A stretch of DNA of 64,000 bases. Origin: an uncultured Pseudomonadales bacterium. GTDB taxonomy: Bacteria; Patescibacteriota; Microgenomatia; UBA1400; CAYXSR01. Below, in pieces: positions 32,277 through 42,249 of the stretch. Both the position numbers and the translations under genes were made by a program. Location of the stretch: the NCBI GenBank assembly GCA_964430265.1, contig CAYSEI010000001.1, positions 61,574 to 125,573 of the forward strand, in the 5' to 3' direction. The stretch's first letter is position 1. The number at the start of each line of letters is the position of its first letter. The notes under the pieces are model-generated. The model made no database searches, was not told the DNA's origin, and saw nothing but the letters and a program-made list of their open reading frames with translations.

Positions 32277-35200
32277 ATGAAAACCTGGCAAAAACTAGTC
32301 AGTAGTATATTTTTATTGGTTGTATTGTTTCTGGTCTTTCCCAAAGAAGCAGATGCATACTTTGGCTATAATGTTCACAGTTTAGCAAAAGAAAATCCGG
32401 AAAACATTTCCCGTATTTTAAATTACCTTGCAAGCAATTGTGAAACCACAATTGTACGATTATGGGGTTATGAATCAACATTTGGCATTCAGGGATATGA
32501 TAATTTGCAAAAAGTACTTGATGCAGCTCCCTCAAATATTAAATTCATAGTTGCGCTTGAAGATTTTCCTTATGGACCTCCTGAAAGTAATCCGGGAGCC
32601 TGGTATTCAAACGGGTATAGAACCAGGTATCGAGATTATGTAGCGCGGATGCTTGACAGGTACGGCAACTCGGAGAAGATATTGATTTGGGAAATGGTTA
32701 ATGAACCGCACTGTAAGGGCGATTCTTCTTGTCTTTCTTCTCTTGTTGACTTTATAAATGACATGAGTAATTTAATGGCATCCAAAACATCAGCATACAT
32801 TTCCCCTGGGTTAATGACCTCGCAAATCCCATTAGATACTTATGAATTTATAACAAATTTGCAAAATATTACAGCCAATTCCTGCCACTATTACAATGAA
32901 TCAAATACCAAAGGGAGTTGTCTTGATGCAGCAAATATTGTTAAGGGAGCGGGAAAGTTTTACTATATTGGTGAAGCAGGATACAAAGCAAGTGGTTCAG
33001 GAGGAAGTGGAAGCTGTACAAGTGCGGACTGTACGAATGTTTGTGGTCTGCAGCCATTGCAGCAAAGATATGATCAAGTTCAAGCTGACAGAAGTCAATT
33101 AACGGGAACAGGAGCAGATGCTTTTATACTCTGGCAATTTTCTCCGCAAAGAAATCCTTTACTGATATGTGATCGTTTTTCAGTTTTTCCTGAAGATCCA
33201 TTGTGTGGAGGAGAAGGTTTGGATTTAATACCCACGGATGTTGGCGAGGACATGGACGAGATTCTGGATGTTAATCAAGAAACAGCTTACGGTCGAAGGG
33301 TCTACGGAAGGGGTATTCCCTGTGGTCCTTTGCGCAGCTGGCCAGCGACTGGGGAAGAAGAAGTACAAACATATTATGATATTTCTGAATGGGAAAACCA
33401 ATACCAAGCGGCAAACGGATTTCCCCAGCATCCGTATGATGCAATGGATTTTGTTCCTTATGATTGGAGTCCGGAAAGACCATTTGTTGGAGACAACTGT
33501 TATCCTTTGGAATATACTACTAAAACAGACTACAATATTGAATATTGTGCAGAACAGCCGGTGGGAACGGATAAAATAAAATATTTTATCCAGCCGCCTT
33601 CAGAGATAATTGATTATCTTGAAGTAGCAGATTTACACATGACTAGTTTACAAATTCCCTTTTTAGGAATAAGCAGAGCTTCATCAAACTATATGTGGGA
33701 CAAAGAAGACAGAATGCAAAACTTTTTAACCAGCTACTTACGCGGTGAATTATATTTTGATAGAACTTGGGTTGATTCAGAAGACGTTACACCGGAAATG
33801 TTGGAAAGGGAAACAGGAGTTATCAGAAAACTTTATCCAAGAGATTGGATGTATAGTGGTGATATTGCTAACAAGTGGAAAGAGAAAGATATGATAATTG
33901 ACAGACTTTTAAAAGCTACATTTCAAGAATACGAAAGTGAGCTAGAAGGACCAATACACGACTATCCATTAATTTACAAAAATGCCAGCGGGGATTTTTT
34001 GTCTGAAGATGATTTTAAAGAAACTTTTCCTTCCGGACTTCCGGACAGAAAATCATATGAAGATGTCTGGCCGGTAAGAATAAGCCAACTGGTCTGTCAG
34101 AATTCAAATATTTTGGTTGATTATGGATATGATCAGCATCCTGCTTGTCAGCAAGGAACTAATTGGCTAGCTGATTCTGGATCACATGAAGATGAAGGAC
34201 TTTTGTATCAAGAGCTCTGGCCTAAATATTTTCCAATTGCCTCAAAAGAGGATGCCAAAGTTATTGTTGACTTTAGTATGCCTGATGATAATGAAGCGAG
34301 AAATATTAATGATGTTCCAATCAAAAACCAAAGATTTTTTGATATGAGCTTAAATGAGCAGAAACAAATACTTGAACAATATAACGGTCAATATGTGACT
34401 AGGGGTGGAGATGGTTTAATGCGGCATAGGGTAGAAGAAATTTTTGTTCCGTATATAGCTGAAATGGAAGATTTAAGCGACTGGGTTTTTAAAACAGCAA
34501 TATCTGAAGAAAGACAAAAAGAAGCCAGAGATAATGAATATGCCGACTCAAGTATTGATAATGTTAAGCTTCCTAGTGACGACGAATGCAAGCTGGATGA
34601 AGCAAGAGGCGGGATAGCTGATCCAGTTGCAGTTAATTATCAAAATTATTTACACGACACAAATGATCCAACAGTTCCAATTCGCAGGGAAGATATGTGG
34701 GTTTGGGTATTAAATGAGGTTGAAGCAGACAAAAGTACAAAAGAACCGACATATTGTGCTCCTGATCCTTGTGATCCGACGTTTCAAGACTGCAGTAATG
34801 ATTGTGTCAGTCCGAACAAAGAAACTGAAAAATCAAAAGGAAAGATTGAAACAAAGTTTCCTTTACTGAATACTGTAGCTTCAAGGCTAATAGGGGAAAA
34901 ATATGGAGCCTTTAATATATTTTTTACAGATGAGCAATTAAATACAATAAAAACAAAAATTAGTGAAAAAGTAGATAACAAAGTAAATCCTTTGGAACTG
35001 CCGGCAGAAGGTAAATCAAAATTTGACTGGGTAGAGCAAAGTGGAATAAGTACTAAAAGTGATGGGAAAATGTGTGATGAATATTGTGAAGGAAACAGAG
35101 ATGTAAAATCAGTAGACAGCAGTGGGAAAGAAGTTGATTTCTATTTTCCTTATGTAGGCTCTTTACAAATTTTCCGCCAGCTGATTTCTAGGCAGCTTCT

Positions 35201-35819
35201 GCCATATGGCTATGAACTGGCAACAGCAGACGCACAATCTGTTGATTACGATACTTCAGGTAGGGAATTGGGCTCTTGCCAAGCAGTTGATATTCCTGAC
35301 ATGGCACCAATGTCGGAAAATGCAATAGCACAGGCAGCAGTCAGTGATGATGAGGCAAGAGTTTTAGGAGGTATTTTGTATGTTGAGTCAGCGCATGCTT
35401 ATCAAACGGGCGATTCAACTCATTGTCCGGTTAGTCCTTGCGGTGCAGTGGGATGGTTTCAAATAGTTTGTGGATGGGAGAATGTTAATTGTGATCCAAG
35501 CAAAGGTGCAATATGTGATGCATACTGTTCAAACGGCCAAGTGCAGAACAAAAACGCATTTGCCTGTCCAGCAGGAATAACAGATCCGCAGCAATTATGT
35601 GATCCAAATACAGCAGCAGAGGAAGCTATTAAAAAGATTAGAGGAAAAATGGGCAAGTCTTCGGGTGAAAGCTGGACTGCTGATGAAGCAGGCGAAGCAG
35701 CCGCCAGATATTTTGGTGAAAGCGCTTCTATTGCAAACTGCAGTGACGGACAAGAATGGTCACGCCTAGGAAATTGTACTTATTGTGAATTTGTCAGAGA
35801 ATACTTCAATAGTTACTAA
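32277..35819 (+). CDS. Secreted giant protein: N-terminal GH5-like glycoside hydrolase plus a C-terminal lytic transglycosylase (SLT/lysozyme-like) domain
   Basis: It has a signal peptide, a GH5-type acid/base block ILIWEMVNEPHC and a later WQFSP block. The C-terminus reads LYVESAHAYQTGDSTHCPVSPCGAVGWFQIV, resembling the SLT 'ES...GAxGLMQ' signature. Confidence 0.6.
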   Translation: MKTWQKLVSSIFLLVVLFLVFPKEADAYFGYNVHSLAKENPENISRILNYLASNCETTIVRLWGYESTFGIQGYDNLQKVLDAAPSNIKFIVALEDFPYGPPESNPGAWYSNGYRTRYRDYVARMLDRYGNSEKILIWEMVNEPHCKGDSSCLSSLVDFINDMSNLMASKTSAYISPGLMTSQIPLDTYEFITNLQNITANSCHYYNESNTKGSCLDAANIVKGAGKFYYIGEAGYKASGSGGSGSCTSADCTNVCGLQPLQQRYDQVQADRSQLTGTGADAFILWQFSPQRNPLLICDRFSVFPEDPLCGGEGLDLIPTDVGEDMDEILDVNQETAYGRRVYGRGIPCGPLRSWPATGEEEVQTYYDISEWENQYQAANGFPQHPYDAMDFVPYDWSPERPFVGDNCYPLEYTTKTDYNIEYCAEQPVGTDKIKYFIQPPSEIIDYLEVADLHMTSLQIPFLGISRASSNYMWDKEDRMQNFLTSYLRGELYFDRTWVDSEDVTPEMLERETGVIRKLYPRDWMYSGDIANKWKEKDMIIDRLLKATFQEYESELEGPIHDYPLIYKNASGDFLSEDDFKETFPSGLPDRKSYEDVWPVRISQLVCQNSNILVDYGYDQHPACQQGTNWLADSGSHEDEGLLYQELWPKYFPIASKEDAKVIVDFSMPDDNEARNINDVPIKNQRFFDMSLNEQKQILEQYNGQYVTRGGDGLMRHRVEEIFVPYIAEMEDLSDWVFKTAISEERQKEARDNEYADSSIDNVKLPSDDECKLDEARGGIADPVAVNYQNYLHDTNDPTVPIRREDMWVWVLNEVEADKSTKEPTYCAPDPCDPTFQDCSNDCVSPNKETEKSKGKIETKFPLLNTVASRLIGEKYGAFNIFFTDEQLNTIKTKISEKVDNKVNPLELPAEGKSKFDWVEQSGISTKSDGKMCDEYCEGNRDVKSVDSSGKEVDFYFPYVGSLQIFRQLISRQLLPYGYELATADAQSVDYDTSGRELGSCQAVDIPDMAPMSENAIAQAAVSDDEARVLGGILYVESAHAYQTGDSTHCPVSPCGAVGWFQIVCGWENVNCDPSKGAICDAYCSNGQVQNKNAFACPAGITDPQQLCDPNTAAEEAIKKIRGKMGKSSGESWTADEAGEAAARYFGESASIANCSDGQEWSRLGNCTYCEFVREYFNSY

Positions 35820-35854
35820 AACTATTCGTAAATAAATTTAGGAGTTATAATTTG

Positions 35855-35925
35855 CAGGTCCGCCAGGATTTGAACCCGGAATAACGGTTTTGGAGACCGT
35901 TGTGATACCATTTCACCACGGACCT
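35855..35925 (-). tRNA. tRNA-Trp (anticodon CCA)
   Basis: Hand fold: acceptor AGGTCCG/CGGACCT, D-arm GTGAAATGGTATCAC, anticodon loop CTCCAAA, T-arm CCGGGTTCAAATCCTGG. Confidence 0.75.
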
Positions 35926-35928
35926 ATG

Positions 35929-36001
35929 TGGACCGTATCGGGTTTGAACCGATGACCTCTTGCATGCCATGCAAGTGCTCTTCCAGCTGAGCTAACGGCC
36001 C
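35929..36001 (-). tRNA. tRNA-Ala (anticodon GGC)
   Basis: Its acceptor and D-arm are identical to the other tRNA-Ala, with G3:U70. The anticodon loop is ATGGCAT and the T-arm is ATCGGTTCAAACCCGAT. Confidence 0.8.
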
Positions 36002-36096: not shown

Positions 36097-37923
36097 ATGT
36101 GCGGGATAATTGGTTATACCGGCAGTAAAAAAGTTCTTCCATATCTTCTGACAGGTTTAAAAAATCTTGAATACCGCGGATATGATTCCTGTGGAATTGC
36201 TTTAATGGAGGAAAACGGGATTAAAATAGTTAAAACAAAAGGTGAAGTGGACAAGCTGGTCCAAATAACTTCTGATCTGGAAACAAAAGCAACATTAGGA
36301 ATAGGGCATACACGTTGGGCCACACACGGAAAGCCTTCCAAAAAGAATGCCCATCCGCATACTGACTGTACTGGTAAACTTGCTTTAGTCCATAACGGTA
36401 TTATTGAAAACTTTAAAGAGTTAAAGAAAAAACTGATAAAAAAGGGGCATAAATTAAAATCAGAAACAGATACCGAGGTTTTAGTGCATTTGATTGAGGA
36501 AAAGTTAAAGAAAGAAAAGGATATTTTATTAGCAACTAGAAAAGCGTTATCAGAAATAATTGGGGCATACGGAATTGTTTTAATATCAAGTGATTTTCCT
36601 GACCAGATTATAGTTGCGAGAAACTCTAGCCCCTTGCTTTTAGGATTTGGTGAAAAAGGAAATTTTGTTGCTTCTGACCAACCGGCTTTAGTTTCCTGGA
36701 CGCAGGATATGGCCACTCTAAAAAACGAGCAGGTTGCCAGGATAACCAAAAATAAGGTGGAAATACAAAGTCTGGATGGGCAGTCGGAACGCTACCAAAA
36801 AATATTTGTGGAAGATAAATTTGAACAAGTCAGCAAAAAAGGTTACAAACACTTTATGTACAAAGAAATTCAGGAACAACCTGAAGTGATTAAGGATGCT
36901 TTAAGCGGTAGGTTTGACAAGAATAAAGGGGTTAAGTTAGGGGGAATAGAGGATTATCTTGAGGTTTTATGTAAAAAAGACTTTATTACTCTTGTAGGGT
37001 GTGGCACTTCTAAATATGCCTGTATGACCGCAAAATATTTTTTTCAAGATATAGCAGAAATTCCCGTAGTTGTTGAAGATGCAACTGATTTAGTTGGATC
37101 AAATTATCCCTGGGAAAAAGGACAACCTGTAGTTTTTGTTTCCCAAAGCGGAGAGACAGCGGATATTTTGTCTGTTTTAAGAAAAGCAAAAGAAAAGGAT
37201 ATTTTACCCTTTGGATTGGTAAATGTTATAGGATCCTCAATTGCCAGAGAAACTGAGGCAGGAATATATACCAGGTCGGGTTTTGAAATTGGAGTTGCTT
37301 CAACAAAAAACTTTACAAATCAGATATTGGCATTTCTTCTTTGGGCAATTTTACTTGGTGTAAAAAAAGGAAATTTAAAAGGAAAAAGAAAAAAAGAATT
37401 ATTTGCAAAAATTGACAAAATACCCGAGTATGTACAAAAAGTATTGGATAAAGAAAAAACAATTAAAAAATTGGCAAAAAAGCTAAAAAAAAGAAATAAA
37501 ATATATATTTTAGGAAGGAAAAAAGGTTATGCACTTTGTTTAGAAGCAGCATTGAAAATTAAAGAAATATCATATTTGCCAGCTGAAGGAATAGGAGCAG
37601 GTTTTTTAAAACACGGACCTTTGGCACTGGTGGAAAAAGACACGGTCTTGCTATTTCTTCTTCCGGATGATCCTCAATTTGAAAAAAACCTTAATAGTAT
37701 TCATGAGGCTGCTGCCAGAGGCGGGGATATATATATTTTAACTAATAAAGATAAAGAGTTTGAAAAGGAATTCAATGTATACAACTTTCCCAAATGCAAT
37801 CAACATTTAAATATTTTCCCGATGACAGCTTGGGTGCAAATGCTGGCATATTGGACAGCTAGAGAATTAGATAGGCCAATAGATAAACCCCGAAATCTTG
37901 CTAAAAGTGTAACTGTAGAATAA
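36097..37923 (+). CDS. glmS: Glutamine--fructose-6-phosphate aminotransferase
   Basis: It begins MCGIIGYTGSKKV...RGYDSCGIA, a class II glutamine amidotransferase (Ntn GATase) start. It has two SIS domains and ends ...AKSVTVE. Confidence 0.9.
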   Translation: MCGIIGYTGSKKVLPYLLTGLKNLEYRGYDSCGIALMEENGIKIVKTKGEVDKLVQITSDLETKATLGIGHTRWATHGKPSKKNAHPHTDCTGKLALVHNGIIENFKELKKKLIKKGHKLKSETDTEVLVHLIEEKLKKEKDILLATRKALSEIIGAYGIVLISSDFPDQIIVARNSSPLLLGFGEKGNFVASDQPALVSWTQDMATLKNEQVARITKNKVEIQSLDGQSERYQKIFVEDKFEQVSKKGYKHFMYKEIQEQPEVIKDALSGRFDKNKGVKLGGIEDYLEVLCKKDFITLVGCGTSKYACMTAKYFFQDIAEIPVVVEDATDLVGSNYPWEKGQPVVFVSQSGETADILSVLRKAKEKDILPFGLVNVIGSSIARETEAGIYTRSGFEIGVASTKNFTNQILAFLLWAILLGVKKGNLKGKRKKELFAKIDKIPEYVQKVLDKEKTIKKLAKKLKKRNKIYILGRKKGYALCLEAALKIKEISYLPAEGIGAGFLKHGPLALVEKDTVLLFLLPDDPQFEKNLNSIHEAAARGGDIYILTNKDKEFEKEFNVYNFPKCNQHLNIFPMTAWVQMLAYWTARELDRPIDKPRNLAKSVTVE

Positions 37924-37925
37924 GT

Positions 37926-38099
37926 TTAGTCCAGTTTAGTAGTTTCTTTGTGTTCTGTATGTTTCCTGCAGTTTTTACAAAACTTCTTTATCTCCAGTTT
38001 GTCAGGAGAGTTGACTTTGTTTTTTTCCGATATATAGTTGTGACTGCTGCAAATATTACATTTAAGAGCAATCAGTTGTCTTGGTCCACTTTTTGCCAT
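37926..38099 (-). CDS. rpmG: 50S ribosomal protein L33 (C4 zinc-ribbon type); 57 aa, absent from the ORF track
   Basis: Own translation gives MAKSGPRQLIALKCNICSSHNYISEKNKVNSPDKLEIKKFCKNCRKHTEHKETTKLD. Confidence 0.85.
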   Translation of the reverse strand: MAKSGPRQLIALKCNICSSHNYISEKNKVNSPDKLEIKKFCKNCRKHTEHKETTKLD

Positions 38100-38159
38100 A
38101 ACAATAGGATTTTACCAGTTTCCCCTTTATTTTTCAAACTTTTGCTATAAAATAACCTT

Positions 38160-39803
38160 ATGAACTGTGTGAACCGTGAAACTTTTCCCATAGATGAACA
38201 AAGTCGGGATTTAGAAGATATTTCAGGGAATGAAATATCAACAAAACCAATAACGATTTGTCAAGCAAAAGACCAGGCCAGATTAACTTCAACATTATTG
38301 CACAATCTTGAGGTTGACGGTGAAAGTATTAATGAACTGTATGAAAGTGTTTATAGAAGGGACCATAATTTTTGTCATGGAAGAAGAACAGAAGGGGACT
38401 TAAAAGATATTTTGGAACACGGACCTTGTCTGCGTAACATGCAGGAGCTTAAACAATATTATTTTCCTGCATTTTTGGCTATCCGGGAACATGATGTGAT
38501 TCAGGTTATAACCGGGAAAAAAAGAAGACATGCACAAAGAGGAGCTTTTTTTACCTTGTGTGCTTTGTGTCATTACCGTGATCAAATGGTCAAAATTGAC
38601 AATGGAATTGATGATCCGCAAAAAGTAATAAGTGATGAGCAAATATATTCAACCATAACAATGATTAGGTATCATTCACATCCCCAAGAATTAGAAGGAA
38701 TGGATAGTTTTCTTAGTGTAAAGGAAATAGCAGAGGAAATACCTAGTATTAGTACGGAAGAAAGACAAGAAATACTAAAAAAACAGCAGGATGCAATACT
38801 TAAGGCATATAGGGAATCTGAAGGAGAGTGGAGTGCAAAAGAGGCAAGGGCTGTTGCAGCCAAAGTAAAAAGCGATTTTGAAAAATTGGGAGAAAACTAT
38901 TTTATCAGGGATGAAGAAGCAGAATTATATGATATTGTACCGGGGTGGAGGAAATACCATGAAATGGCTATGAAAGGAGAATTACTTGAAGGGGTTGAAG
39001 AAAGAGTGGATTTTGAAAATTTGCGTCTAATGGCAAAACTAGTTGCTGCGGCTGATAAATTGGACGGAATTGCAGGGGGAGCGTTTTCTTTTATAAGGCT
39101 TTTTAAAACTCCAATAAGTGATGAAAGACCTTTTTACACTAGAACAGAAGGTTATGAATTTGACAAAGAAAATTTGGATAAAATGCTTTTAAGCAGGGAA
39201 GATATTTTAAGGATTTTTCAAGGAAAGGGAGATTCAATTGAAAGAGAATTATGGCAGCAAGCTTTGATTGGCAGGGGAGAATCCCCAAGTGATGAATGCC
39301 GGATATATGCAGAGTTTTTAAAAGCATACGAATATTTGGGAAATCTTTCAAAAAGACAGGACATAATGATTGTCAAGAGCAAGCTGAGCTACTATTTACG
39401 GGAACGTTTTAAGGCTTGGAAAGGTTTTATTAATGCTCTTGAGCAAGGTGAGGGTATTGCTGATATTGAAGAAGCTGAAACTGAAAAAGATCTTAAAAAA
39501 GGAGTCATTGGTTATTTCAGAAAGGTAATTGAAAAAGAAGAAAAAAAGTCAGGGAAAGATAAACATAAGCCAAAAGAAAAAGAATGTTTAAAAGAAGATT
39601 TTGTTTTTGTAGTGGTGATGTTAATCAGTAAACTCAAAGAGGAAGGGGATATTTTTTCACTTCCGGAGGAAGAAAGAAAAAAGATTGCACAAAAAATGAA
39701 GCGGAAAGCAAACATAATAGGAAAATATCTTGATGAGTTTTATCCCCAATCTGTTTACGGAGCGGGTAATCCGAGTAAAAAGAGCTATTATCCGCCATAT
39801 TAA
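38160..39803 (+). CDS. Hypothetical cytoplasmic protein (547 aa, E/K-rich)
   Basis: It is a long clean ORF with no recognisable domain. Confidence 0.5.
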   Translation: MNCVNRETFPIDEQSRDLEDISGNEISTKPITICQAKDQARLTSTLLHNLEVDGESINELYESVYRRDHNFCHGRRTEGDLKDILEHGPCLRNMQELKQYYFPAFLAIREHDVIQVITGKKRRHAQRGAFFTLCALCHYRDQMVKIDNGIDDPQKVISDEQIYSTITMIRYHSHPQELEGMDSFLSVKEIAEEIPSISTEERQEILKKQQDAILKAYRESEGEWSAKEARAVAAKVKSDFEKLGENYFIRDEEAELYDIVPGWRKYHEMAMKGELLEGVEERVDFENLRLMAKLVAAADKLDGIAGGAFSFIRLFKTPISDERPFYTRTEGYEFDKENLDKMLLSREDILRIFQGKGDSIERELWQQALIGRGESPSDECRIYAEFLKAYEYLGNLSKRQDIMIVKSKLSYYLRERFKAWKGFINALEQGEGIADIEEAETEKDLKKGVIGYFRKVIEKEEKKSGKDKHKPKEKECLKEDFVFVVVMLISKLKEEGDIFSLPEEERKKIAQKMKRKANIIGKYLDEFYPQSVYGAGNPSKKSYYPPY

Positions 39804-39823
39804 AAATTATATAATAAAAGTTA

Positions 39824-40336
39824 ATGATTAAAGTAGGTGTGGGTTCAAACAATCCGGTTAAAATTAAAGCAACAGAAAATGTTTTTAAATCTTTGCTTGA
39901 TAAAAAAACAATAGTTGAGGGAGTAAAAGTTTTTTCTGGGGTCAGTGATCAGCCCATGAGTATAGAGGTTTGTTACCAAGGAGCTTTGCAAAGGGCAGAA
40001 AATGTGTTAAAAAAAGGCAAATTTGATTATGCAGTTGGACTTGAAGGCGGAGTCAATCAATTTTCATTTGGCTGGGTTACCCAGGGTGTAATTGTGATTT
40101 TAAATAAAGAGGGGAAGCGGGGAGTTGGAATGTCTGCTGCTTTGCCTTTAGATGAAAAAATAATTAAAAAACTTGAAAGTGGCAAAGAGCTGGGAGATTT
40201 AATTGAAGAGAGTAGTGGAATTGAAGATGTTAAGCAGAAGCAAGGTGCGTTTGGGTTATATACCAATGGTTATGTAACCCGTCAGCAGGGTTATGAACAC
40301 GGAGTGGCTTTTGCCTTATCCCGATTTCTGGTATAG
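39824..40336 (+). CDS. yjjX: Inosine/xanthosine triphosphatase (YjjX/DUF84, Maf-Ham1 superfamily)
   Basis: The ORF begins MIKVGVGSNNPVKIKATENVF...SGVSDQPMS...GLEGGV...GAFGLYTNGYVTRQQ...AFALSRF, which aligns along the YjjX family. Confidence 0.75.
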   Translation: MIKVGVGSNNPVKIKATENVFKSLLDKKTIVEGVKVFSGVSDQPMSIEVCYQGALQRAENVLKKGKFDYAVGLEGGVNQFSFGWVTQGVIVILNKEGKRGVGMSAALPLDEKIIKKLESGKELGDLIEESSGIEDVKQKQGAFGLYTNGYVTRQQGYEHGVAFALSRFLV

Positions 40337-40348
40337 TTATTAATAACA

Positions 40349-40684
40349 ATGACAGAAGAAAACAAAAGACTTGTTAAGGAAATTGAAGAATTAAACAACA
40401 AGCTGGATAAAATCTCCAATAAAAGCAAGTTTATGATTTATTCAGCCAATCCTTTTAAGTTTGCCTTTTTTAATTTTATTTCCGGAATGTTTCATTTTAT
40501 GGGTGTTTTTTTTGGTATGTTTTTGATTACCGGAGTAGCAGCTTACCTTTTGTCGCAGTTCCAGGTAGGCAGATTAATTGATGATTGGATGGTTGAGAGA
40601 ATGACGCGTTGGCAAACGGAAATTAATAGAAGCTTAAAAATTCCTTCAGGCTATGTGCCGGATTTAAGAAATAATGGAAACTAA
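40349..40684 (+). CDS. Hypothetical small membrane protein
   Basis: It has an N-terminal coiled segment and one transmembrane helix (GVFFGMFLITGVAAYLL). Confidence 0.4.
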   Translation: MTEENKRLVKEIEELNNKLDKISNKSKFMIYSANPFKFAFFNFISGMFHFMGVFFGMFLITGVAAYLLSQFQVGRLIDDWMVERMTRWQTEINRSLKIPSGYVPDLRNNGN

Positions 40685-41566
40685 GGTATCACGCAGTTTG
40701 TCCGCCAGCTCGCTTGCATTGTAAAACCACTTTTTATCTTTCCAAAGCAGATCACCGGTTTTTTTATTAATAAAGCTTGCGGCAGCGGCAATATTTAATG
40801 CATCATCTGATTGTGAGTAAAGCGCGGCTGTTAAGCCGGCTAAAACATCACCAGTTCCACCCTTTGTCATGCCCACGTTACCGCCGGTGGAATAAAGCCA
40901 GTTGTTTTTATTAGCAATAATATCAATCGGTCCTTTTAAAAGAATTGTTATCTCATATTTTCTAGCAAATTTCTGAACTAGTTCAGCGACTTTTTCAATC
41001 TCTTTTTTTTCAGCGGAGTGAGTAAGTAAAAGCTCTTCTGTTTTAACATTAAAAAGCTTGGACATTTCTTTTCTGTGAGGTGTAATTATTATTCTCTTAT
41101 TTTCCTTTAAAATTTCTGGTTCAATGACTTGCAGGCTTCCGGCATCCAAAACCACTTTTTTGTTGCTTTTAATTACTTTAAGAGTTACGTCTTTTGTAAA
41201 TTCCGCTTCTTTTTCTGATTCTTTTAATCCCGGGTCCGGCTCACGCATTAAACCGGTTCCGGATAAAATTGTTTCCGAATTTTTTAGATAAGAATCGATC
41301 TGTTCTCTTTTAATACCAATAAATGAATCATACTTTATCTTAAGGTAGTCAAGGTTTTCTGGAGTGGAAGCAAAATATACCATGTCATTGGTTTTAGTTG
41401 CCAAGGACAGGGAAACTTCCAATGCAGCTTTAGCAGCCAAGCGGCCGGCACCGTGAAAAAGCGGGGAGCCGCCAATAATTAAAATATTGCCGTTTTCTCC
41501 TTTATGTGAATTAGGATCCGGCTCTTTAATGGTGCTTTTAACTAACTTTTTAGTTACCTTCTGCAT
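40664..41566 (-). CDS. nnr: ADP-dependent NAD(P)H-hydrate dehydratase (YjeF C-terminal/carbohydrate kinase domain)
   Basis: It reads GENGNILIIGGSPLFHGAGRLAAKAAL...GGNVGMTKGGTGDVLAGLTAAL. Confidence 0.8.
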   Translation of the reverse strand: MQKVTKKLVKSTIKEPDPNSHKGENGNILIIGGSPLFHGAGRLAAKAALEVSLSLATKTNDMVYFASTPENLDYLKIKYDSFIGIKREQIDSYLKNSETILSGTGLMREPDPGLKESEKEAEFTKDVTLKVIKSNKKVVLDAGSLQVIEPEILKENKRIIITPHRKEMSKLFNVKTEELLLTHSAEKKEIEKVAELVQKFARKYEITILLKGPIDIIANKNNWLYSTGGNVGMTKGGTGDVLAGLTAALYSQSDDALNIAAAASFINKKTGDLLWKDKKWFYNASELADKLRDTLVSIIS

Positions 41567-41586: not shown

Positions 41587-42249
41587 TTATTTATTGTCCA
41601 TATATTCGGGAGCGGTTTTTTTAACATAATCTTTTCTGTCTTTTCCCTTGAGATGCGGAATAAATGGACGGAATTTATCCAGTTTTTCTTTTTCCTTGTT
41701 AAAAGTAAAAAGAAGCTTGTTTACGTAATTGTGCAGGTCTTCATAAAACGAGATATTAATAATTTTAAAGTTTTTAATGTTGCCGGCTGCTGAACGGGCA
41801 ACAAAATAGCCCAGATTTGTAAACGCCTGCAAATAGTTTTTCTGGTAAGCGCCGGTGTCAACAATCCGGTCAAGACCCAAAGAAAGCTGATATCTAGTAA
41901 ATGGGGTAGTGTAGATAAACTTTGTCAGGCGGCGAGTGGTGATTATAAAAAGGCTTTTTTTCCAGAGTATCCAATACCACCAAAATGCAAAAACTATTCC
42001 GGTTATAATAAGTGCAGTAACTGAAAACGAAAGGGAAGAAGGAATATTTAAAAACTGATTAGCAAACCTGATAAGTAAAAATTGTAAAAGAAAAAGCATA
42101 AAACCTACAAAAGCAACTGAAAACCAGCGGAGCCAAAGCATAATTCTACCTTCCCTGGTAACAAAAAGTATTTTTTCATCACTATGCTGGCCTGGGAAGG
42201 TAATGTTTTTATATGGGAATTCAAAATCATTACATTTAAAAACTCTCAT
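41587..42249 (-). CDS. Hypothetical membrane protein with a bacterial PH (YdbS/YdbT-like) domain
   Basis: It has two transmembrane helices followed by an IITTRRLTKF motif. Confidence 0.45.
   Translation of the reverse strand: MRVFKCNDFEFPYKNITFPGQHSDEKILFVTREGRIMLWLRWFSVAFVGFMLFLLQFLLIRFANQFLNIPSSLSFSVTALIITGIVFAFWWYWILWKKSLFIITTRRLTKFIYTTPFTRYQLSLGLDRIVDTGAYQKNYLQAFTNLGYFVARSAAGNIKNFKIINISFYEDLHNYVNKLLFTFNKEKEKLDKFRPFIPHLKGKDRKDYVKKTAPEYMDNK

Follow-up and report, generated by a model that had tools for sequence, protein, structure and literature searches.

A divergent and enlarged YedJ/YpgQ-like HD-domain protein encoded upstream of yjjX in a CPR-like genome

YpgQ of B. subtilis (PDB 5DQV) and YedJ of E. 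coli (PDB 3GW7) belong to the HD superfamily; both are compact proteins of approximately 190–230 aa that act on (d)NTPs as Mn2+-dependent pyrophosphohydrolases. The chemistry characterised in their clade is nucleotide hydrolysis (PMC6692503, PMC11592144), and its members act as Mn2+-dependent (d)NTP pyrophosphohydrolases, as a 5'-nucleotidase and as a cGMP phosphodiesterase. In YpgQ, the Mn ligands are H29, H58, D59 and D124, while H25 contacts the phosphate and R136 the ribose (PMC8177086). PenF from Streptomyces antibioticus, a small single-domain, YpgQ-like HD 5'-nucleotidase, carries an equivalent set of H...HD...D ligands (H27, H56, D57, and D128) and an essential arginine, R140, after the last Asp (PMC11592144). 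A longer pattern of six residues, H...HD...H...H...D, has been published as a sequence diagnostic of dinuclear sites (PMC8177086), and YqeK (PDB 2O08) is a diiron HD Ap4A hydrolase.

The gene described here was found in a stretch of 64,000 nucleotides (the window) from an uncultured bacterium. It is a complete CDS on the plus strand, 38160..39803, with an ATG start and 547 codons followed by a stop; the long, clean ORF of the original prediction was thus confirmed with the same boundaries. The Kyte-Doolittle mean over 19 residues peaked at 1.27, with no transmembrane segment, and the acidic and polar N-terminus made a signal peptide unlikely. The cytoplasmic location that had been proposed was supported. 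The protein is rich in E and K as described (21.8%), but this content is unremarkable, at around 0.9 SD above that of the ORFs in the window (17.3 ± 5.3%). When the sequence was compared with that of its only close homologue (70% identity), residues 1–370 gave a pN of 0.25 and a pS of 0.73, and residues 371–547 a dN/dS of approximately 0.11. The ORF is a real gene under purifying selection.

The protein had been regarded as an orphan with no recognisable domain and no known catalytic motif, and its absence from the domain libraries was reproduced. No significant model was obtained for the query in Pfam, NCBIfam, PHROGs or PADLOC, and no significant match was found among the PDB sequences. When the 15 members of the family described below were scanned with Pfam, the HD domain (PF01966) was detected in only one of them (E 0.14) and not in the query. 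HMMER profiles of the full family and of its core retrieved no HD protein from the PDB sequences, just noise at E ~1, and none of the methods tried linked the protein to HD by a sequence-to-profile comparison.

Searches across billions of proteins identified a single close homologue, the one mentioned above, and some 17 distant relatives. To check the phylogenetic distribution, 1.84 billion cluster representatives were searched exhaustively with phmmer; there were 14 matches, all from metagenomes or MAGs, and those with a credible taxon label belonged to Patescibacteria/CPR. The 13 distant relatives among these matches were of similar length (490–597 aa) and shared only 17–24% identity. Homologue searches with the profiles of the full family and of the core gave just the two close sequences, or none, probably because words rich in E and K had overwhelmed the word index. 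No related locus was found when genome contigs were searched with the single protein or when metagenome contigs were scanned. A degenerate DNA pattern produced 13 matches in genomes, four of which were real family members; the match in Levyella, considered as a sequence intermediate, was rejected as a chance match in the wrong frame. Neither a paralogue nor a classical YedJ-type gene was found in the window. The family alignment used hereafter consists of 15 sequences.

The relationship to known enzymes emerged from profile-profile comparison. The core profile of the family was aligned by hhalign with a reference of five YedJ/YpgQ sequences at a probability of 95.1% (E 3e-8, 128 columns), and an extended core reached 95.6% (E 1.2e-8) over 185 columns, corresponding to positions 21–208 of the 229 of YedJ. 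With a reference of seven sequences, the values were 95.7% and E 9.6e-9. These strongest scores were obtained with an edited core alignment from which a family-variable insert had been removed, and only then did the alignment span the insert region; the unedited full-length alignment gave probabilities of only 53–70% (E 4e-5 at 70%). Controls with reversed or column-shuffled templates yielded scores of 8–18 and probabilities below 1%. As regards specificity, the family scored 24.6 (5%) against the YfbR/HDDC2/OxsA clade, whereas YedJ scored 35 (52%) against YfbR. In the alignment with YedJ/YpgQ the metal ligands were matched column for column, and the motifs HxxxH...R, HD and (A)D(K/R)LD...R were in register, with homology extending over nearly the whole of YedJ. 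Hence, the orphan status was overturned by a confident remote homology to a characterised family, and the protein is not devoid of a recognisable domain. The reading as a whole, in which a YedJ/YpgQ relative within the HD-domain superfamily has diverged strongly, has grown 2.5-fold and works as a cytoplasmic metal-dependent phosphohydrolase, is considered to have a probability of about three in four.

A structure model built from the 15-sequence alignment showed an all-alpha HD/PDEase fold, whereas the model obtained from an alignment of two sequences was useless (pLDDT 36). A Foldseek search of the former against the PDB returned nothing significant, only all-alpha noise. Cas3-HD, Mesh1/SAH and PhnZ were also named among the evidence for the HD assignment.

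The protein could be divided into five segments, all of them encoded on the plus strand. The N-terminal tail (aa 1–30, 38160..38249) is acidic, poorly conserved (18% identity to the close homologue) and probably disordered, with a pLDDT of 22–40, and it is absent or cannot be aligned in the distant relatives. The first part of the HD core (aa 57–180, 38328..38699; pLDDT 80–95) aligns with H24, H28, R31 and H57-D58 of YedJ and holds ten residues that are invariant in the 15 sequences, namely H69, H73, R75, R76, H111, D112, K121, H124, H172, and P175. It is followed by a family-variable insert of E/K-rich helices (aa 181–284, 38700..39011) located between the HHSxPE and DKLD helices, which is gapped in the alignment, has a pLDDT of 44–65 and is absent from YedJ/YpgQ. 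The second part of the core (aa 285–429, 39012..39446; pLDDT 70–90 in the model) comprises the AADKLDG helix, R313, R323 followed by P and F, and the D378 helix, and ends where YedJ ends; D299, K300, R313, R323, and D378 are near-invariant in the family. Finally, the C-terminal extension (aa 430–547, 39447..39800) is formed by long helices; K491 and an aromatic P-Y-x-x-Y-type tail are conserved in it, and no family or PDB match for it, nor any counterpart in YedJ/YpgQ, was found.

Five motifs within the core together make up a metal-ligand pattern, H...HD...(H...H)...D, that does not vary within the family, and a catalytic motif is consequently visible where none had been recognised. In DHNFCHGRR (38361..38387), H69 corresponds to the phosphate-contacting H25 of YpgQ, H73 to the first metal ligand and R76 to a conserved arginine, according to the roles described for YpgQ (PMC8177086). 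REHD (38484..38495) carries the invariant HD dyad, H111 and D112, which aligns with H57-D58 of YedJ and with H58-D59 of Lin1889/YpgQ. KRRH (38520..38531) contains K121 and H124, an invariant pair specific to this family that has no conserved counterpart in the YedJ family, and YHSHPQE (38670..38690) contains the invariant H172 and P175; H172 aligns with H107 of YedJ, a position occupied by H, I, V, H, and M in the reference family. The helix with AADKLDG (39048–39068) carries D299, the last metal ligand.

YpgQ residue numbers were transferred motif by motif, with Lin1889 (3b57) as the intermediary. H69, H73, H111/D112, D299, and R313 are equivalent to H25, H29, H58/D59, D124, and R136 of YpgQ, respectively, and all of them are conserved. 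By contrast, two of the four substrate-contact residues of YpgQ are not: F140 and H158, which contact the base and the ribose 2' position, are replaced by T317 and D378, a Thr and an Asp that are near-invariant in the family. R313 also corresponds to the essential R140 of PenF, and the substrate residues of that enzyme, H174 and K178, lie on the helix that bears D378 and R381 here; the substrate preference of PenF cannot be transferred to the 547-aa protein. In addition to these replacements, the protein and its family (490–597 aa) differ from the compact YedJ/YpgQ in an N-terminal extension of approximately 65 aa, the insert of approximately 100 aa preceding the DKLD helix, a second and smaller insert that follows RPF, and the C-terminal helical extension of approximately 120 aa with its conserved aromatic tail. 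Moreover, the family carries K121, H124, and H172 as further invariant residues, suggesting a second metal.

From these correspondences, the most likely function predicted for the protein is that of a metal-dependent nucleotide phosphohydrolase. H73, H111, D112, and D299 would hold a divalent metal that activates a water molecule, H69, R76, and R313 would hold a nucleotide-type substrate in place by its phosphate and ribose, and a phosphoanhydride or phosphoester bond would be hydrolysed. The invariant H124 and H172, candidate fifth and sixth ligands, would probably recruit a second metal and give rise to a dinuclear site. The six-residue pattern (H73, H111, D112, H124, H172, and D299) is present and invariant in the sequence, with unusual spacing: the two extra histidines lie at HD+12 and +48, compared with +32 and +26 in YqeK, to which the structural similarity was weaker than to YedJ. 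Since the readers of the base and of the 2'-OH have been replaced and an insert of approximately 100 residues and a C-terminal extension of approximately 120 residues have been added, both the substrate and the regulation are expected to differ from those of YpgQ. A bolder version is put forward only tentatively and is thought improbable: a Patescibacteria-restricted, dinuclear-metal offshoot of YpgQ/YedJ in which the remodelled pocket (T317, D378, and K121) and some 300 extra residues would provide a substrate or regulation undescribed for HD enzymes.

The six-residue pattern also bears on a second reading, marginally less probable still and considered unlikely, in which the protein would be an HD enzyme of a chemistry or substrate class other than that of the YpgQ-type nucleotide pyrophosphohydrolases, such as a dinuclear phosphodiesterase whose substrates would be (di)nucleotides, cyclic or linear, or RNA/DNA, a hydrolase of polyphosphate, Ap4A or (p)ppGpp, or, at the extreme, a diiron oxygenase. 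This pattern is typical of dinuclear PDEs, YqeK and oxygenases (PMC8177086), the YpgQ readers of base and ribose have given way to T317 and D378, the additional residues (approximately 300) could accommodate a larger substrate, and a YedJ/YpgQ orthologue, AtCN-PDE1, is a cGMP phosphodiesterase (PMC6692503). However, the sequence-profile affinity is specific to YedJ/YpgQ, and the signatures of the other classes are missing from the sequence: HDxxHxGxxN of class I PDEs, HDxxED of RSH hydrolases, HHE...GYP of HD-GYP proteins and, as judged by Pfam, the N-terminal domain of Ppx-GppA. Accordingly, several individual candidates were rejected. A class I cyclic-nucleotide PDE (PDE4/5/7/8/9) was discarded because the sequence at and after the HD dyad reads HDVIQVITGKK instead of its motif, and the identity of 10–13% represents a likeness at the fold level only. 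For PPX/GppA, no Ppx-GppA ASKHA domain was detected, and the structural match was restricted to the HD-like C-terminal domain of PPX, again at fold level and 10–13% identity. A RelA/SpoT-homologue (p)ppGpp hydrolase (SAH, Mesh1) lacked support in the absence of its HDxxED motif, and an HD-GYP protein in the absence of both the GYP triad and HHE.

Much less probable is a catalytically inactive HD-like scaffold, whose role in binding or regulation would resemble that of HDOD-type domains and whose large helical additions would provide the real function. Characterised HD enzymes indeed offer no counterpart to the N-terminal tail, the insert or the C-terminal extension, which together account for over half of the protein, but the ligands H73, H111, D112, and D299 and the contacts H69, R76, and R313 are invariant or near-invariant at 17–24% identity, as is characteristic of a functional active site, and the dN/dS is approximately 0.1. 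The least probable reading of all, a true orphan of novel fold and function whose HD likeness would be a chance convergence of an all-alpha protein, would agree with the empty searches of Pfam, NCBIfam, PHROGs, PADLOC and the PDB sequences, the all-alpha noise from Foldseek and the very small number of homologues, but it is opposed by the invariance of the H...HD...D columns and by the hhalign E value of ~1e-8 with the ligands in register and shuffled or reversed controls below 1%.

The genomic context was examined as a further source of information about the YedJ/YpgQ-like hydrolase. The flanking genes were rpmG and yjjX, as had been proposed, with matches to PF00471 and PF01931, respectively. 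The former, encoding ribosomal protein L33 (37926..38099, minus strand; E 7.9e-19), is transcribed divergently 60 bp upstream of the 547-aa ORF. The intergenic region common to both genes, 38100..38159, was analysed by comparison with a related locus and by a scan for promoter sites, and presumably contains the promoters of the two. The block 38080–38139 was 93% identical between the two loci, with flanks of approximately 50–80% identity, and a promoter-like site was located on the minus strand at 38137–38109, in a sequence where such sites were not enriched compared with shuffled sequence. An Rfam scan of 38000–40000 revealed nothing significant that could explain the ultra-conserved 3' tract.

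The gene yjjX (39824..40336, plus strand; E 9.2e-52) encodes a YjjX-type NTPase (NTPase_I-T, inosine/xanthosine triphosphatase family). It lies 20 nt downstream of the 547-aa ORF on the same strand, with no terminator-like site between them, and the arrangement is the same at the related locus, so that the two genes probably form an operon and are co-transcribed. Such co-transcription with an ITPase/XTPase would point to a function in sanitising the nucleotide pool or in salvage. Nevertheless, when the conservation of the neighbourhood was checked, no single operon was kept across the family, and for this reason the link to yjjX is drawn from two closely related genomes. The neighbours of the relatives included a PRK-type nucleoside kinase, a UMP kinase and an NAD(P)HX dehydratase.

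Taken as a whole, the family does not represent a new kind of system. The view of the protein as lineage-specific holds in that the family is tiny and lineage-restricted, although it constitutes a divergent branch of known HD enzymes; likewise, what had been seen as a candidate for novel function is not a new kind of protein, but rather a rare new branch of a well-known kind of enzyme. What had passed for an orphan lacking any domain, in a CPR-like and sparsely sampled genome, became recognisable as an enzyme by combining a small family alignment, structure prediction and profile-profile comparison, and the annotation of HD-domain phosphohydrolase can now be given to around 20 hypothetical proteins. 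They define a family outside the coverage of Pfam and NCBIfam, to which it could be added. The family can also be seen as a natural experiment within one fold, in which the metal and phosphate machinery of the YpgQ type has been kept, the nucleoside readers have been swapped and two histidines have been added, possibly converting a mononuclear site into a dinuclear one. Provided that the connection with YjjX is genuine, the protein would carry out a step of nucleotide sanitation or salvage in organisms that depend on scavenged nucleotides. Should the bolder version hold, it may be a hydrolase that salvages or clears away nucleotides that are damaged or non-canonical, working with YjjX, or alternatively it may hydrolyse a nucleotide-derived signal or a polymer end; in either case it would be a hydrolase needed by ultra-small symbiotic bacteria unable to make nucleotides de novo.

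The open reading frame at 38160..39803 (+) starts with ATG and encodes 547 aa, exactly where the original prediction had placed it. The flanking genes that it named were also confirmed: a ribosomal protein L33 gene (rpmG; 37926..38099, -; PF00471, E 7.9e-19) lies divergently to the left, 60 bp off, and a YjjX-type NTPase gene (39824..40336, +; PF01931, E 9.2e-52) follows on the same strand after 20 nt free of any terminator-like site. Farther out are glmS on the left and, on the right, a gene for a small membrane protein of DUF5665-like type and the convergent gene of an NAD(P)HX dehydratase. The protein has an acidic N-terminus and, as had been stated, no transmembrane segment (the 19-residue Kyte-Doolittle mean peaks at 1.27). 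Its described E/K-richness is true (21.8%) but unremarkable, being less than 1 SD above the 17.3 ± 5.3% of the window's ORFs.

Several features of the surrounding DNA were also recorded. The DUF5665-like gene (40349-40684, +; 111 aa; E 1.4e-4, under the Pfam cut-off) starts 12 nt past the yjjX stop codon, and its 3' end overlaps the dehydratase gene (40664-41566, -) by 21 nt. Between the latter and tRNA-Thr, a 220-aa ORF with hydrophobic segments (41587-42249, -) gave no Pfam match at E ≤ 1. On the other side, tRNA-Trp(CCA) and tRNA-Ala(GGC) are arranged in tandem with 2 nt between them (35854-36001, -), just upstream of glmS on the opposite strand. In an 1180-aa ORF (32277-35819, +), the N-terminus (MKTWQKLVSSIFLLVVLFLVFPKEADA) resembles a signal peptide, cysteines are numerous, and the only match, to glycosyl-hydrolase-5, fell below threshold (23.1 bits, cut-off 23.5; E 5.9e-5); its product looks like a large protein that is either secreted or located at the surface.

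The single 547-aa sequence gave nothing significant against Pfam, NCBIfam, PHROGs, PADLOC or PDB sequences. Among 5.8 billion proteins, a word-indexed search recovered just two entries: the protein's own NCBI record, on a contig of 405,517 bp, and P0002, a 70% identical homologue from a JGI metagenome. Exhaustive phmmer against 1.84 billion cluster representatives added 13 relatives (E 1e-8 to 2e-4; 27-36% identity across residues 45-210), nearly all of 490-597 aa, and a degenerate DNA pattern of the family signature found four members in 185,579 species-representative genomes. The sources were MAGs or metagenomes without exception, one labelled Candidatus Beckwithbacteria and one Patescibacteria group bacterium. 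Three others are TPA assemblies titled "uncultured Gammaproteobacteria" (loci L002/L007, CAZGYB010000001.1; L018; L019). These labels look doubtful and are probably wrong, since L002 shares the order queA-tgt-fmt-HD with a Patescibacteria MAG (L013). The G+C content of the family loci was 33-42% overall and 36-42% for L002/L007, L018, L019 and L013. The phylogenetic distribution, which had been proposed as a check, thus revealed a very small family that is probably restricted to Patescibacteria.

Family HMMER profiles found nothing significant among PDB sequences either, and Pfam HD was reached by only one of the 15 aligned members (E 0.14). Nevertheless, the 15-sequence alignment contradicted the earlier statement that no known catalytic motif is visible. 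Conservation was found in D-H69-G-x-x-H73-x-R75-R76, R-F-H111-D112, K121-x-x-H124, H-H172-S-x-P175-E and A-D299-K300-L-D, followed by R313, R323-P-F and D378, in which H73...H111-D112...D299 is the ligand set H...HD...D that is canonical for HD-domain metalloenzymes.

A structure model built from two close sequences alone reached a pLDDT of 36, and the one built with the 15-sequence alignment 71.3 (pTM 0.74; conserved core 80-95). The protein comprises a disordered tail (residues 1-30), an N-terminal helix (31-56), an HD core in two parts (57-180 and 285-429, the end coinciding with that of YedJ), a variable E/K-rich insert between them (181-284), and a helical extension (430-547) in which K491 and an aromatic tail of P-Y-x-x-Y type are conserved; this extension matched nothing known. 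In the structure comparison table, scores were 11-13 for PPX/GppA C-terminal domains, 10-12 for class I PDEs, 11.6 for E. coli YedJ (196/215 residues aligned, 17% identity), 10.1 for 2pq7 (19% identity) and 9.7 for B. subtilis YpgQ (175/188 residues, 19% identity); poly(A) polymerase (an HD-containing nucleotidyltransferase), SidE PDE, Cas3-HD, SAH/Mesh1 and PhnZ scored lower. Membership of the class I PDEs, RSH hydrolases, HD-GYP or PPX/GppA was excluded, their signature motifs or domains being missing.

The relationship to YedJ/YpgQ was examined by hhalign against YedJ (E. coli K-12 record) and six solved homologues taken from PDB alignments. With the insert removed, the core profile matched a 5-sequence reference at 95.1% probability (E 3e-8, 128 columns), and the extended core matched the 5- and 7-sequence references at 95.6% (E 1.2e-8; YedJ 21-208 of 229) and 95.7% (E 9.6e-9), both over 185 columns. 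The unedited full-length profile gave 53-70% (E 1.4e-4 to 4e-5) in the N-terminal block only, because the insert of about 100 residues interrupts the local alignment. Reversed and 20 column-shuffled templates remained below 1% (scores 8-18). Against the YfbR/HDDC2/OxsA clade the family scored 5% (24.6), and the YedJ family itself scored 52% (35) against the YfbR clade. The family thus stands closer to YedJ/YpgQ than the latter does to a second genuine HD clade. This confident hit to a characterised family (95-96%) overturns the orphan reading. The physical observation of the original prediction stands, and "no recognisable domain" is what routine annotation reports, but its interpretation was only partly right for what is an HD-domain relative of YedJ/YpgQ.

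In YpgQ, one Mn is held by H29, H58, D59 and D124, while H25 touches the phosphate and R136 the 3'-OH of the ribose; F140 stacks on the base, which H158 contacts together with the 2'-OH (PMC8177086). When this numbering was transferred through the in-register Lin1889 sequence, H69, H73, H111/D112, D299 and R313 corresponded to conserved H25, H29, H58/D59, D124 and R136, whereas F140 and H158 were replaced by T317 and D378. The PenF counterpart of R313 is R140, and mutating it leaves almost no activity (PMC11592144). The equivalents of the catalytic and phosphate-handling residues are retained, and the nucleoside-reading ones are altered. K121, H124 and H172, invariant in the family beyond the YpgQ set, extend the motif to a six-residue H...HD...H...H...D pattern, which PMC8177086 gives as the diagnostic of dinuclear sites such as that of YqeK. 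The spacing is unlike that of YqeK, and we infer that a second metal may be bound.

Comparison with P0002 gave pN 0.25 and pS 0.73 (saturated) over residues 1-370 and dN/dS of about 0.11 over residues 371-547; therefore, the ORF is a protein-coding gene under purifying selection. The divergence from L001, the metagenome contig of this close relative, is a mosaic: 39268-39867, from the 3' third of the ORF to the first ~45 nt of yjjX, is 85-100% identical to L001 2430-3030, and the remainder of the gene ~50-80%. In this tract dS falls from saturation to 0.36, dN/dS is still ~0.11 and no Rfam family matched; it looks like recent homologous recombination between two lineages rather than a nucleotide-level functional element. 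Positions 38080-38139 (rpmG 5' end and divergent intergenic region) are 93% identical, against 48-83% in flanking blocks, and may represent a conserved promoter serving both directions or a conserved 5' leader; a sigma-70-like scan showed no enrichment over shuffled sequence. Between glmS and rpmG, separated by only 2 nt in the window (37923-37926), L001 carries two additional genes (439-1114), one for an RHH_1 protein of 62 aa and one for a protein of 150 aa without a Pfam match; the two genes look like a toxin-antitoxin-type insertion.

The protein is best read as a predicted metal-dependent enzyme that hydrolyses a phosphoanhydride or phosphoester of nucleotide type. Nucleotides are the substrates of every characterised relative: YpgQ and YedJ hydrolyse (d)NTPs as pyrophosphohydrolases, AtCN-PDE1 is a cGMP phosphodiesterase (PMC6692503), and PenF is a 5'-nucleotidase (PMC11592144). 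The terminator-free 20-nt gap and the order glmS ... rpmG(-)-ORF-yjjX, kept in the only close relative, suggest co-transcription with the ITPase/XTPase YjjX, and hence a possible role in nucleotide-pool sanitation or salvage. Distant members lie beside a PRK-type kinase, UMP kinase, recF and NAD(P)HX dehydratase, or beside fmt, tgt and queA; there is thus no family-wide operon, and this physiological inference is weak. The protein is nonetheless recognisable as a relative of YedJ/YpgQ and a predicted HD-domain phosphohydrolase. It represents a new branch at family level, in which the architecture is enlarged, the specificity pocket altered and the metal site possibly dinuclear.
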